From a virus, in the IMG/VR virus record IMGVR_UViG_3300036859_000424: a stretch of 64,000 nt of DNA; one strand, 5' to 3'. Below are positions 58,035-62,596 of this stretch, one piece after another. The translations under genes and the position numbers were made by a program. A model generated the notes under the pieces. The model was not told the origin of the DNA. It made no database searches and saw only the letters and a list, made by a program, of their open reading frames with translations. Every line of letters starts with the position of its first letter. Within the stretch, counting starts at the first letter, position 1.

Positions 58035-58241
58035 CTAACTGTCGGCGTGCCCGCGCGAGGCAACGTGCTGCCTCACGATCTCTTCATTGACGTGATCGAA
58101 GGGACAGCTCTCGCACTGGTAGACGGTCACCTGGTGCGGTGGCTTGCCCCACGGCTTCTCGTAATAGCCGTCGTGCCGCCGGCTCGCCCGGGGCTGGGCG
58201 GCGGTCGGCTTCGGGGTTGGGGTTGGGGTCTCATCAGCCAT
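58035..58241 (-). CDS. small C2H2 zinc-finger-like protein
   Basis: YQCESCPFDHVNEEIVRQHVASRGH. Confidence 0.65.
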   Translation of the reverse strand: MADETPTPTPKPTAAQPRASRRHDGYYEKPWGKPPHQVTVYQCESCPFDHVNEEIVRQHVASRGHADS

Positions 58242-59457
58242 CGGTACCTCCGACCGTGGTGGGAATGCCGGCCTGACGGGCCGTGTAGTCGGCCACCAGG
58301 TGGGACCAGGCGGCCGGCCAGCGGTGGGCGTTGGCCTGCAAGCTGTGAAGGCTTTCGACCTTCTGCAACAGGCGGTCGGCGAAGTGGCGGCGCCGTGCGC
58401 GATCCTCGATCAGCCATGACAGGGAAGCCTCCCAGTCGTCGGCGTTCGTACAGATCAGCCCATCTTCGCCATGATCGATCAGGTGCCGGTAGACGGTCGG
58501 GGACGCCAGCACGGCCGACCCGGCTGCCGCCCCTTCCAGCGCCTTGATCGGCGACTTGCTGGCGTTGAACGTGTTCGCTTCCAGGGGGCAGCACAGGATG
58601 TCGATCTCGGCCATCAGCCCCGGGTACCGTTCGATCGTCTCTTTCGGCCGCAGGGTCAGGCGATCGGCGTCGACCGACCGCAGCAGGACCCCCAGCGGGT
58701 AGCCGCCGACCAGGAAGCGGACGTCGGGGTAGCGGTTGGCGATCCGGGTCCAGGCGACCGCCAGATGACGGGCGTCTTCGTCCGGGCGGTTACCGCCGGC
58801 CCAGCCGATCGTCAGCGGACGATCCGGGTCCAGGGCGCCCCGCTTCGGGCCGTACTTCTCGACCCCAGCCCGGAACCGGGGCAGGTCGATCGCGTTCGGG
58901 ACGACGATGACCGGCTTGTCGGTGAACCGACTGACGACCTCAGCCAGCCTGGGGGTCGCCACGGTCACCCCGTCCGAGAGCGCCAGTGGCAGAATCCTGG
59001 CCTGCCGCTCGCGCTCCATCAACTCCTGGGGCTTATTCGCCTGGGCCGGGTCGCCGGTCACCCGGATCCGGTCGATGCTCTCCTCGCTGTACAGGTCGTC
59101 GTCGGTCTCGTAGATGACGGTCGTACCCAGGCCGTGCATCAGCGCAACCCAGCGATCCGCGACCCAGTCCTGCTCCGGCGCCCATTCCAGGCGCGCCATC
59201 ACCACGGCGTCGGCGTCTCGAAGCCAGTCGGCCGATCGGGCGTCGCCGACGGCGCACCAGCCGACCGGGTAGCCCCGCCGGTGCAGCTCAGAGAACGGCT
59301 GTGCGATCCGCCAGGCGGTACATCCCGCCATCATCTCAGGGTGGACCAGCGCCAGGACGCGCGGGCTCGTCGTGCCGACCGCTAGATCCCCGATCCTCTC
59401 GGCTGCGCCCCGCTGCGCGGCGCGAATATCGACTGCTTCGACATCTCTCCAGGTCAT
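58234..59457 (-). CDS. GT4-family (GT-B) glycosyltransferase
   Basis: IYETDDDL...VTVATPRL...VVPNAID...IGWAGG...SKSPIKALEGAAAG..VLASP. Confidence 0.9.
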   Translation of the reverse strand: MTWRDVEAVDIRAAQRGAAERIGDLAVGTTSPRVLALVHPEMMAGCTAWRIAQPFSELHRRGYPVGWCAVGDARSADWLRDADAVVMARLEWAPEQDWVADRWVALMHGLGTTVIYETDDDLYSEESIDRIRVTGDPAQANKPQELMERERQARILPLALSDGVTVATPRLAEVVSRFTDKPVIVVPNAIDLPRFRAGVEKYGPKRGALDPDRPLTIGWAGGNRPDEDARHLAVAWTRIANRYPDVRFLVGGYPLGVLLRSVDADRLTLRPKETIERYPGLMAEIDILCCPLEANTFNASKSPIKALEGAAAGSAVLASPTVYRHLIDHGEDGLICTNADDWEASLSWLIEDRARRRHFADRLLQKVESLHSLQANAHRWPAAWSHLVADYTARQAGIPTTVGGTDG

Positions 59458-59960
59458 CACGTCCCCCCGCCCGGCTTCGTCGCCCACAGGTACAGGTCGC
59501 CCCGCTGCTTGTGGGTCTCCAGGCGCTGGATGGCCATCCCGTCGACCCAGTCGTGAAGCTCGCCGGGGCGGACGTTCAGGTACCACTCGCTGGGCCGGAG
59601 CCGGTTGCCGTCGATCCCGGAGTGCGGGGGCCGGGGCGGCATCGCGCAGGTCACGATCAGGTGGCCGCCCGGGGCCAGCATCGCGATCATGTTCTCGACC
59701 AGCAGGGCGGCTGCCCGCGCGTGCTCGAGCACTTCGCAGCAGACGACCAGGTCGACCCGGGCCAGCGGCCGCCAGGTGGAAGCGTCAGCGACGACGTTGA
59801 CCCCCGGGCCAGGGATAAGGTCCAGGCCGGTGTAGGCGGTCCCCGGGAATAGCTCGCGGACCGACCCGTTGATGTCGCGGCTGCCGATCTCGACAGCAGT
59901 CTTGACCCCGACCAGCACCGTAGCGACGCTGGCGACGAACGCGTACGCTTCCGCGTGCAC
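59457..59960 (-). CDS. class I SAM-dependent methyltransferase
   Basis: VEIGSRDING...YTGLD...VVADA...DLVVCCEVLEH...LAPGGHLIVT. Confidence 0.9.
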   Translation of the reverse strand: MHAEAYAFVASVATVLVGVKTAVEIGSRDINGSVRELFPGTAYTGLDLIPGPGVNVVADASTWRPLARVDLVVCCEVLEHARAAALLVENMIAMLAPGGHLIVTCAMPPRPPHSGIDGNRLRPSEWYLNVRPGELHDWVDGMAIQRLETHKQRGDLYLWATKPGGGT

Positions 59961-60352
59961 TAGTCGACCCCCATCCAGCATTCGTAGTTGCAGCCGACCA
60001 AGCTCCGGCCGCTGGAATCACCGGTCATCGCGAACGGCTCAGACATCGCGTAGATCGCCTTGTAGGTCCGGCCGTTGACGCTGGCGATCGCACCACCCCG
60101 GATCGCTACCAGCAGGTCGCGGATGTCTCTGGCGCGGGTCCGGGCGGCCTGGGGGTCCCGGTCTCGGACGATGACCTGGACATGCGGGTAGCGCCGCTCG
60201 CCGCCGTTGTGGACCCAGGCGGCCGGGCGGCCGGCGGTGTCGGCGATCGCCGCGCAGACGTCCGGCTGCTCCGGCAGCCGGCCCATCACCAGGGTCGTGC
60301 CCAGGGTGCCCAGGCCGGCCGTGACCAGCAGGTCCGCGATGTCTTCCGGCAT
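59960..60352 (-). CDS. tail terminator / minor capsid 3-like neck protein
   Basis: DIADLL...GLGTLG...GRLPEQPD...PHVQVIVR. Confidence 0.8.
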   Translation of the reverse strand: MPEDIADLLVTAGLGTLGTTLVMGRLPEQPDVCAAIADTAGRPAAWVHNGGERRYPHVQVIVRDRDPQAARTRARDIRDLLVAIRGGAIASVNGRTYKAIYAMSEPFAMTGDSSGRSLVGCNYECWMGVD

Positions 60353-60378
60353 CACAGCCTCCCTGCTAGAGTTGCGGC

Positions 60379-61008
60379 GTGAAGCGCTGTTCGCGGTGCG
60401 GGGCCGACCCGACCGCCGAAAACTCGTACCCGACCGGCCAGGTCTGCCGGCCCTGTAAGGTCGCGAGCGCGATGGCCTGGAACAAGGCCAACCTCGAACG
60501 ACGCCGTCAAATCAGTGCTGCGTCGGCGCGGCGGGCATACCACGCCGATATCGACGCCACGCGGGCCAGGAAACGCGCCTGGCGGGCCGAGAACGCCGAT
60601 CGGGAGAACACCCGCACCCAGCGCTGGCGTGATGCCAACCCCGGCGCGGTCCGCGCCCAGAACGTCCGTTACTACCACGCCAACCCTGACGCCAGTCGGG
60701 CGCGCTGGCTGACCCACTACCTGGCAGACCCGGAGCCGACCCGTCAGCGCAACCGTCGGCGTCAGGCGCTGGTGCGCGGGGCAACCGTCTACCCGTTCAC
60801 GGTGGCCGACTGGCAGGCCCAGGTCGACGGCTTCAACCGGCGCTGCGCCTACTGCCTGCGACCGCTGATCCGGGTGACGATGGATCACATGACCCCGGTC
60901 TCGCGGGGCGGGGATCACGCGATCGAAAACCTGGTCCCCTGCTGCCAATCGTGCAACAGCCGAAAGAAGGACCGAACACTGCTGGAATACCTGCCGCTTC
61001 TTGGGTGA
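60379..61008 (+). CDS. HNH endonuclease (antisense to the late operon), putative homing endonuclease 3
   Basis: RCAYC...TMDHMTPVSRGG...NLVPCCQSCNSRK. Confidence 0.9.
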   Translation: MKRCSRCGADPTAENSYPTGQVCRPCKVASAMAWNKANLERRRQISAASARRAYHADIDATRARKRAWRAENADRENTRTQRWRDANPGAVRAQNVRYYHANPDASRARWLTHYLADPEPTRQRNRRRQALVRGATVYPFTVADWQAQVDGFNRRCAYCLRPLIRVTMDHMTPVSRGGDHAIENLVPCCQSCNSRKKDRTLLEYLPLLG

Positions 61009-61010
61009 CA

Positions 61011-61418
61011 TCACAGCCCCCAACTTCGCAACAGAACACCAGCGACACCACGCATCAGGTTTTCAGGTCCATCCCTGGTCCATTCTAGTAATGGACGCTC
61101 AAGGAACTTCGCCTGTTTTCCTTGCGCATGTTTGTAGTCCAATCTTTCGTGTTGGATCAGCGCGTAGGGGACGTCGTTGTCGCCGCCGTAGCTGATGTAG
61201 ACGTTGACGATCCCGCCACCGATCTCCGGGTCATCGACCCGACCGGAGTTGACCAGGCGCTTCGTGTCGACGGGGCACAGCCGCTGCGAGACCTCCAGCA
61301 CACCGACCATCTCGCGCTTCAGCCCTACCGCGCCGACCGCTTCGACCTGGGGCACCAGCGACAGCACCCGTCGTCGGAAAGCGTCCAATCCGACCACCTG
61401 GCACGTCGTGTCGATCAT
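61011..61418 (-). CDS. HK97 gp10-like neck / tail-completion protein
   Basis: SQRLCPVDTKRLVNSG...PYALIQHE...AKFLERP. Confidence 0.85.
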   Translation of the reverse strand: MIDTTCQVVGLDAFRRRVLSLVPQVEAVGAVGLKREMVGVLEVSQRLCPVDTKRLVNSGRVDDPEIGGGIVNVYISYGGDNDVPYALIQHERLDYKHAQGKQAKFLERPLLEWTRDGPENLMRGVAGVLLRSWGL

Positions 61419-61561
61419 CCGCGTCCCCCATCGCCATCGGCGGTTTTCGGGGCGCTGCCTACCATCGACGGTAGGCTTGACTGGGGGGCGGGTGGCGTCG
61501 GGTCGAACGGCCTGCCCAGCCCCCGGATTCGCGTGTGGAGATGACTGATCTGCCCGTTCAT
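61415..61561 (-). CDS. 48-aa hypothetical peptide
   Basis: TGATG and ATGA coupled; N-terminus resembles the C-terminus of the upstream gene. Confidence 0.45.
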   Translation of the reverse strand: MNGQISHLHTRIRGLGRPFDPTPPAPQSSLPSMVGSAPKTADGDGGRG

Positions 61562-62202
61562 CAGGCGGTGCCTTCTTCCCCCGGTGGCGCCATCGGCAGG
61601 TCGTCAGCGCCGCCCAGGCTCCGGACCAGCCGCTGGAGATGGTGGACCTGGCCGGCCGCCAGGGTGTGCCGTTCCAGGATCATCCGCAGGTCGGCGGCCT
61701 GCTCCGGGGTCAGGTTGTCGGCGCGCAGCAGCAGTTCGATCGCTGACGCGGAGATCGCCAGGTCGTTCACCAGCGTGTGCAGCATCGGCCGGCCGATCCG
61801 GGCCGTCTCGGTCATCCGTTCGCTATCGGTCGGATTCAGTGGCTGGGCGCCGACGACCTCTTCAAAGTGCGTCCAGCGGTGAACCTGCTGAAGTGCCAGG
61901 CCCAGCAGCAGCAGCAGGGTCACCAGCGGCGAGAGGTTGGCGCCCAGGGCGCCGGGCGTCAACACCAGCGGGTCCGGGGTCGCCGCCGCGATCGTGGTCT
62001 GGAAGCCCAGGACCAGGTTGATCGCCAGGAAGGCGATCATCTCGGTCCGGCGATCAGCGATCATGCGGTCGCGGATAACTGACGCGAAGGCGAACTTGCC
62101 GTCGCCGGCCCGCAGCAGGCCCCAGAGACTAACGGCGACCCCGCAGCAGGCGACGAACAGGCGCAGCGCTTCCAGACCGCTGGTGTTATCGAGCGTGGCC
62201 AC
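61561..62202 (-). CDS. multi-TM protein with a HisKA-like C-terminal helical hairpin
   Basis: Three hydrophobic segments, then MLHTLVNDLAISASAIELL...LRMILERHTLAAGQVHHL. Confidence 0.65.
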   Translation of the reverse strand: MATLDNTSGLEALRLFVACCGVAVSLWGLLRAGDGKFAFASVIRDRMIADRRTEMIAFLAINLVLGFQTTIAAATPDPLVLTPGALGANLSPLVTLLLLLGLALQQVHRWTHFEEVVGAQPLNPTDSERMTETARIGRPMLHTLVNDLAISASAIELLLRADNLTPEQAADLRMILERHTLAAGQVHHLQRLVRSLGGADDLPMAPPGEEGTA

Positions 62203-62596
62203 GCATGCCCCCCCGGCGACCGCCCTGCTCTTGCTCACGGCCCAGCAGGCGATCCAGCCGGATCTCATCCAGCAGGTCGAGAATCGCCAGGCCCATCAGG
62301 ATGGCGACGATCAGCACCGCGCCCCAGCCGGTCACGACGGTCAGCAGCCAGTCGCGGTTGTGGGTCACCAGCGCCCACAGCCCGACCAGGACGCCGATCG
62401 CGTGGCACAGCAGGCGGCCGACGTCGTTGCGGATGTACCGATCGGCCGACAAGATGCTCGGCCCACCGACCTGGTGGCCCGCAGCTAGCGACGCGGCTCG
62501 CTTCCGCCACGCCACCACGATCAGTCGGACATTACCCAGGATGCCCAGGGTATTCACGACGGTCCAGATCAGCTCAACCCACTCCCAGGTGATCAT
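62186..62596 (-). CDS. multi-TM membrane protein
   Basis: Three hydrophobic segments. Confidence 0.75.
   Translation of the reverse strand: MITWEWVELIWTVVNTLGILGNVRLIVVAWRKRAASLAAGHQVGGPSILSADRYIRNDVGRLLCHAIGVLVGLWALVTHNRDWLLTVVTGWGAVLIVAILMGLAILDLLDEIRLDRLLGREQEQGGRRGGMRGHAR

Follow-up and report, generated by a model that had tools for sequence, protein, structure and literature searches.

The virus recorded as IMGVR_UViG_3300036859_000424 (IMG/VR) carries an HNH endonuclease gene, the third in this virus (HNH 3), antisense to its structural operon, and comparison with relatives shows the gene to be an insertion at the precise stop/start junction between a gp10-like neck gene and the tail terminator gene. 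The adjoining 3' end of the neck gene is respelled in its codon usage, and among all sampled relatives this respelled end is specific to the HNH-bearing allele. We regard the HNH gene as probably an intronless-homing cassette whose mobile unit includes the diverged, probably cleavage-resistant gene end. The stretch analyzed (64,000 nucleotides [nt]; here the window, 64 kb) is the minus strand of an 86,416-bp record (68% GC, direct terminal repeats), and all positions below are those of the window unless another contig is named. The features concerned are listed in the order of the minus strand, with GC3 denoting the G+C fraction at third codon positions.

61011-61418, minus strand: gp10-like (Neck1-type) gene, 135 amino acids (aa); phrog_5 "tail completion or Neck1" (E = 0.0025, a weak match), upstream of the tail terminator.
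61155-61418, minus strand: native part of the gp10-like gene, codons 1-88, GC3 0.89.
61023-61154, minus strand: recoded tract, codons 89-132, with the change point after codon 88.
61009-61021: direct repeat copy 1; read on the minus strand, three last sense codons, TGA stop (61013-61011), and "TG."
60379-61008, plus strand: HNH endonuclease gene, 209 aa, antisense to the structural operon; PF01844 (E = 1.9e-12), PHROG HNH/endonuclease VII families.
60367-60372, plus strand: -10-like hexamer TAGAGT, a candidate leaderless promoter, 6 nt before the GTG start; no Shine-Dalgarno sequence.
60350-60363: direct repeat copy 2; read on the minus strand, GGGAGG Shine-Dalgarno sequence (60363-60358), 5-nt spacer, and ATG of the tail terminator (60352-60350).
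59960-60352, minus strand: tail terminator gene, 130 aa; PF12691 (E = 1.3e-12).

An initial annotation of the window had described a 10-nt direct repeat flanking the HNH gene and had equated it with the minus-strand stop/start junction. Both points held: the copies at 60350-60359 and 61009-61018 are the sole occurrences of CATCACAGCC in the window (0.21 occurrences expected by shuffling), and copy 1 has the neck gene stop, copy 2 the terminator ATG. The two copies are identical over 10 nt, match at 12/13 nt when extended, and are spaced 659 nt apart. In minus-strand reading, the antisense stop codon of the HNH gene follows immediately after the "TG" of copy 1. Behind the neck gene stop this "TG" is functionless at its present place and is a vestige of a TGATG stop/start overlap, which makes the repeat a true duplication of the junction. 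When the window was aligned with L003, a contig from an HNH-less relative (blastn), positions 61452-61078 and 60362-59608 aligned and the cassette was skipped. The second alignment starts inside copy 2, which identifies copy 2 as the equivalent of the final bases of the ancestral neck gene; in the HNH-less relatives, the end of the gp10-like gene lines up with it. Of the old 3' gene end, only 10 to 13 nt are repeated beyond the nuclease, and no gene-end homology was found between the HNH start and the terminator gene.

HNH is the only gene of the cassette. A transposon-type insertion with target-site duplication was considered and rejected, as the cassette ends have no inverted repeats and there is no gene besides HNH, so no transposase. 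Two soil metagenome runs contain the virus at ~55× depth and are possibly the source sample; their contigs carried the HNH-bearing form only, with no joint skipping the cassette. Junction duplications like that of the window were sought in three contigs with related nucleases (L010, L099, and L102, described below) and were not found.

A protein search (BLASTP) recovered 11 neck-protein relatives with 36 to 69% identity, and contigs from four HNH-less lineages (L003-L006, L007-L009, L014-L016, and L017-L019; 57 to 69% protein identity) were compared with the window. All four lineages have the neck gene directly before the tail terminator, a one-base TGATG overlap between the two, and no HNH; in L003-L006, synteny extends over the methyltransferase, glycosyltransferase, and tail tube genes. 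The last 45 codons of the neck gene have a GC3 of 0.96 in L003-L006 and 0.87 to 0.89 in L007/L008, versus 0.47 in the window. A single junction and a GC3-rich gene end, which had been predicted for HNH-less relatives, were seen in L003-L009, L014, and L017-L019, and the claim survived the search for a low-GC3 stretch in the sampled HNH-less relatives, where none is present. It follows that the HNH gene is an insertion and that the recoded end accompanies it.

Within the window's neck gene, GC3 is 0.89 in codons 1-88 versus 0.47 in codons 89-135, and the maximum-likelihood change point lies after codon 88 (position 61154; Fisher p = 2.8e-7). The codon switch that the initial annotation had placed at this gene end is real, although it does not run through the stop: the tract spans 61023-61154 (codons 89-132), and the three last sense codons, within the repeat, are GC3-rich again. 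A gene-call-free scan of the 86-kb genome returned nine blocks in which no codon phase exceeded 0.62 GC in 135 nt; one is the recoded tract, and another adjoins HNH insertion 2.

Compared with L003, residues 89-120 have 84% protein identity and use the same codon at 30% of conserved residues, versus 66% protein identity and 69% codon identity at conserved residues in the N part (30% versus 69%, Fisher p = 0.0009). As a control, L003 was compared with the other HNH-less lineages: codon identity was 63 to 70% in the N part and, in the C part, 68 to 69% against L014 and L007 but 45% against L017/L018. Where the four HNH-less lineages do not vary, the window alone is changed at 4/100 sites in the N part versus 8/46 in the C part (p = 0.01), and for third positions the figures are 2/22 versus 6/11. 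The 3' part of the target gene beside the nuclease therefore reads as a diverged copy, as does its counterpart in the WHO elements of yeast (discussed below). Among the HNH-less relatives the C part is the best-conserved DNA of the gene (77 to 80% versus 61% nucleotide identity), which is what a homing target should look like. The tract contains a perfect inverted repeat (61078-61096; 7 bp, 5-nt loop) formed by the rare codons CCA, TTA, and GAA; relatives have a partial palindrome only.

Related nucleases are found at the same target gene in other genomes. The nearest HNH homolog (P0014 on L010, 44% identical) is antisense at a gp10-like 3' end with a 60-nt overlap, and the next (P0015 on L100) is antisense at a gp10-like 3' end in the same layout. 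Two more nuclease relatives (P0018 on L102 and one on L099) follow closely behind gp10-like genes in the same orientation, and other, mostly more distant relatives are located elsewhere. The nuclease clade is thus associated with gp10-like 3' ends, and its recurrence at the same gene is new, independent support for the finding. When ~110 gp10-like loci were fetched by neck protein, none had a directly adjacent HNH; L163 has one ~2.2 kb away. On L203 (1220-2211), a more distant nuclease relative is convergent with the 3' end of a gene whose product resembles the C terminus of a large terminase (by eye only), and this may be another nuclease at the 3' end of an essential gene.

The difference in GC3 between N and C parts was scored in 86 distinct gp10-like genes, 82 of them besides the HNH-adjacent ones. 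Without an adjacent HNH, the N-minus-C difference had a mean of 0.01 (standard deviation, 0.085; maximum, 0.23; 82 genes). Beside an HNH gene it was 0.42 in the window (z = 5.5), 0.21 in L102, 0.15 in L010, and 0.03 in L099, and the dips were larger beside HNH genes (one-sided Mann-Whitney p = 0.005; p = 0.022 without the window). L100 is without the N part, and its last 22 codons have a GC3 of 0.27 after 0.85. A dip is present in three of the four scorable relatives with a gp10-like gene beside the nuclease, and each dip begins near the conserved G..AKFLE.P motif, within the best-conserved DNA among HNH-less relatives. The gene end (GC3 0.24), spacer (GC 0.41), and HNH gene (GC3 0.47) of L102 form one low-GC island between flanks with a GC3 of 0.63 to 0.76; by its composition, this gene end plainly belongs to the mobile unit and travels with the nuclease. 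Dips of 0.20 to 0.23 also occur in the gp10-like genes of L184, L123, and L114, which have no HNH and in which the next gene follows directly with no nuclease.

Intronless homing with a linked resistant gene end appears to be the most economical reading of these data. A free-standing HNH cassette of ~650 bp, comprising its own -10-like element and its gene and nothing else, was inserted exactly into the one-base TGATG overlap. The duplicated 10 to 13 nt of the junction would keep both neighbors functional, with copy 1 supplying the neck gene stop and copy 2 supplying the Shine-Dalgarno sequence and ATG to the terminator gene after the loss of translational coupling. In cassette-less phages, the nuclease would most likely nick or cut the DNA encoding the conserved gp10-like C-terminal motif HERLDY..H..GK.AKFLERPLLEW. 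A co-infecting carrier would then serve as the repair template, and the recipient would acquire the nuclease along with the neighboring gene end, everything between about codon 89 and the start of the terminator gene. Synonymous respelling of codons 89-132 in the carrier would keep the protein and leave DNA that no longer matches the target, rendering the carrier immune; the functional unit would then be "resistant gene end plus nuclease." The AT-ward recoding itself may have come about in place, through changes near a site that was broken time and again, or may have been imported from a donor of lower GC. As a more tentative extension, which we hold to be possible without thinking it the likelier case, the zinc-ribbon/helical-repeat HNH clade could be specialized on gp10-like 3' ends and move between distant high-GC phages as a "cut and rescue" unit of nuclease and synonymously respelled, resistant end.

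The composition of the gene end can be explained in other ways. It could be a mosaic patch, copied from a lower-GC homologous phage, with the HNH gene marking or having provoked the exchange boundary and the respelling a by-product of donor composition not selected for immunity. The L102 gene end, which shares the low GC of its entire cassette, speaks for this, as do reports of homing endonuclease genes at the boundaries of exchanged segments (PMC10448857) and a 43-nt stretch of the tract that is 88% identical to L017-L019, closer than to L003, a comparison with few sites for judging ancestry. We nevertheless think such a patch unlikely: the N and C parts have the same closest relatives at the protein level (L003-L006 and L014-L016), no lower-GC donor appeared among the ~110 gp10-like loci, and with the HNH gene at a GC3 of 0.83, a shared foreign origin would need the nuclease, not the gene end, to have adapted its composition. 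Less credible again is a break-induced hot spot: the carrier would be nicked again and again by its own nuclease close to the gene end, changes would build up through error-prone repair biased from GC to AT while purifying selection weeds out the nonsynonymous ones, and resistance would emerge as a late by-product. The changes are indeed spread over the entire 132-nt tract and run toward A/T at sites invariant in relatives, and the dip also spans the ~35 last HNH codons (GC 0.57 to 0.61 at 60900-61049), giving a local island around the point where the two genes converge. A tract boundary, however, accounts better than a gradient for the abrupt switch at codon 88 and for a final 13 nt without recoding, and the tail terminator across the cassette is unaffected (GC3 0.93 to 1.00 over its first 45 codons).

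We give very little credence to a third account, in which the gene end was selected after insertion for RNA structure, for slow translation before the uncoupled terminator gene, or for weaker sense-antisense pairing with the HNH transcript. The sense RNA of the tract folds somewhat better than shuffled sequences (z = -2.2; 6/200), and the rare codons of the tract make the perfect 7-bp hairpin at 61078-61096. The z score is modest, however, the antisense strand has no structure signal (z = -0.9), and a terminator scan and an Rfam search of the region gave no meaningful match; the dip also recurs beside related nucleases in either orientation, which is outside the reach of a sense-antisense account.

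Several observations weigh against homing with a linked resistant end, the reading that we prefer. No HNH-less sister more than 70% identical was found among the relatives (the closest has 69% protein identity), and the respelling is therefore neither datable nor attributable to the insertion event. A few substitutions are usually enough for resistance, and 44 respelled codons exceed what immunity needs. The nuclease gene is itself GC3-rich (0.83), so gene end and nuclease share no simple foreign history here, unlike in L102. The HNH-adjacent gp10-like gene of L099 shows no dip, and in L010/L100 the dip falls partly within the antisense end of the HNH frame, where codon choice may be constrained by the frame itself. 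In phage T4, flank polymorphisms of MobA alone failed to block nicking (https://doi.org/10.1101/2022.08.31.505936). Finally, a wider and rough survey covered 43 high-GC loci with related HNH genes, many of them probably without a role in homing. The mean dip was 0.059 at the 3' ends of adjoining genes versus 0.035 elsewhere, which is not significant (p = 0.20); dips of at least 0.2 occurred in 14% versus 5%, a trend. The enrichment of GC3 dips beside HNH genes that had been proposed earlier thus stands within gp10-like genes and is not significant at the survey loci, and the proposal of a general mechanism for invading essential operons gains nothing beyond this nonsignificant trend.

The nuclease was characterized from its homologs and a predicted structure. 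The PF01844 match is above the cut-off, and the gene has a GC3 of 0.83 overall and 0.60 in its last 15 codons. Alignments to homologs begin at the GTG at 60379, cover 99% of the query, and include a conserved N-terminal CxxC...CxxC zinc ribbon, and this long start is therefore favored over the 178-aa call of the database. Residues C156, C159, H170, N184, C189, C192, and N193 are invariant in 14 homologs; because all catalytic and zinc ligands are invariant, the window enzyme is probably active. The predicted structure (pLDDT, the predicted local distance difference test score, 85) begins with the zinc ribbon, continues through a long helix and then five helices of ~14 residues each, and ends in the HNH domain, in which residues 171-196 form two strands and a helix and which contains two Cys pairs, His170, Asn184, and Asn193. 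A Foldseek search with this model gave weak matches to HNH domains only, the best being the Gme HNH nicking endonuclease (4h9d), and the helical repeats matched no solved structure. The ~5 tandem helices of ~14 residues (HNH residues 24-132; 60379-60780, plus strand) share the motif W-R-x-x-N-P/x...Y, are visible also as imperfect DNA repeats, and may be a modular DNA-reading array.

HNH 1 of the same virus is an HNH_3 protein, and HNH 2 has no Pfam match. The three HNH insertions had been put forward as independent examples of one strategy. As an insertion with a recoded gene end, HNH 3 was borne out, but HNH 2 and HNH 3 are not fully independent: they have weak N-terminal similarity (E = 0.005), share the zinc-ribbon and helical-repeat layout and a promoter-like layout, and differ in their nuclease domains. 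A terminase-associated packaging HNH of the type found in cos phages was rejected as an identity for HNH 3, which is antisense in the neck module and absent in all syntenic relatives, in a genome with direct terminal repeats.

The start of the HNH gene has the layout TAGAGT-N6-GTG (60367-60381), as first annotated, and the same type of layout is found at the HNH 2 start. The pattern TANNNT-N6-RTG has six sites on both strands of the window, two of which are the exact starts of HNH 3 (60379, plus strand) and HNH 2 (40626, minus strand); these are the only two of the six followed by long GC3-rich reading frames. The TANNNT hexamers of HNH 2 and HNH 3 are both preceded by CTAG-like bases. Actinobacterial leaderless mRNAs have a -10 element with transcription starting at the start codon, and TAGAGT would fit such an element, with leaderless transcription from the GTG. 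Scans of the region for sigma-70 promoters and intrinsic terminators found none. At the nearest HNH homolog (L010, 316-410), a GC-rich hairpin and an AGGAGG ribosome-binding site precede an ATG, and this gene is not leaderless, unlike the window copy.

The principle is known already from T4 and from the yeast WHO elements, and what is gained here is breadth and a clean example from a high-GC phage, not a new mechanism. Free-standing nucleases of T4 home by double-strand-break repair with co-conversion of flanks (PMC2988022), and in the T4 MobA cassette the insert-derived region has diverged from the target around the nick site (https://doi.org/10.1101/2022.08.31.505936). The cassettes of T4 SegF, SegG, MobE, and MobA/gene 60 resemble the present one in placing a nuclease between or inside the ends of conserved essential genes, sporadically among relatives, and the T4 Mob enzymes are HNH nickases, a further likeness. 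The window differs in having a nuclease from an unrelated HNH clade (zinc ribbon, five helical repeats, Gme/McrA-type HNH), in its actinophage-like high-GC virus, and in its gp10-like neck gene target. Its divergence is almost purely synonymous, with a GC3 shift of 0.42 and a sharp boundary, and its junction duplication rebuilds the ribosome-binding site of the next gene.

In yeast, WHO elements replace the 3' end of FBA1 with a resistant copy (Coughlan et al. 2020, PMC7282813). The likeness lies in the unit, a nuclease together with, upstream of it, a substitute 3' end of an essential gene that confers resistance, and in the 3' part of FBA1 evolving far faster than its 5' part. WHO nucleases, however, are intein-derived LAGLIDADG enzymes active in eukaryote meiosis, versus a phage HNH in the window, and WHO elements keep the displaced old 3' end as a homology arm, whereas the window keeps 10 to 13 nt and the next gene must serve as the right arm. 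Fungal mitochondria (Endoconidiophora resinifera atp6 and cob; PMC6279837) likewise have free-standing endonuclease open reading frames at the 3' ends of essential genes with a second copy of the C-terminal segment; in that case the two copies are both retained and the nucleases belong to the GIY-YIG or LAGLIDADG types, whereas the window has a single respelled end.

The comparative data show a nuclease living in a tightly coupled essential virion operon without an intron or intein, by way of a junction duplication, a promoter-like element of its own, and a linked respelled neighbor end, and the clade's recurrence at one gene points to a target that can be tested. If immunity proves to depend on the respelling, homing targets in uncultured phages could be located from their codon-usage change points, and the arrangement would be a natural counterpart of engineered cleave-and-rescue gene drives. 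Were the "cut and rescue" clade to prove true, sharp GC3 or codon-usage change points in essential genes would serve generally, by computation alone, to recognize homing targets in phage genomes and to gauge how far co-conversion tracts reach.

The virion genes on the minus strand of the window run, from high to low coordinates, from small head-tail genes through the 135-aa gene, tail terminator, methyltransferase, and glycosyltransferase to the tail tube protein. The 135-aa protein has no Pfam match of its own; 1 of its 12 homologs matches PF04883 (HK97-gp10_like; 1.4e-5), and a PDB sequence search with the neck-protein profile gave no matches. Its gene is directly upstream of the tail terminator in all relatives, which fits the position expected of Neck1, and with these weak profile matches and this gene position, "gp10-like" is a reasonable but not proven label. 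The tail terminator gene has a GC3 of 0.92 from its first codons on and no recoding, and its start peptide, MPEDIAD, is identical in L003. Searches against 50,697 phage records found no match to the region's DNA or, by tblastn, to the tail terminator, and exact-peptide scans of viral contigs with either neighbor protein found no relatives.

Between the tail terminator and tail tube genes are a methyltransferase and a group-1 glycosyltransferase (58234-59981, minus strand), a pair also present in L003. In L017/L018, two family-2 glycosyltransferases replace the methyltransferase, followed in L017 by the group-1 enzyme, and the region may be a variable module for virion glycosylation. A gene located among those for head-tail joining (61561-62268, minus strand) encodes a 235-aa protein that has hydrophobic stretches and matches neither Pfam nor PHROG; the relatives have a gene of 210 to 213 aa in this position.

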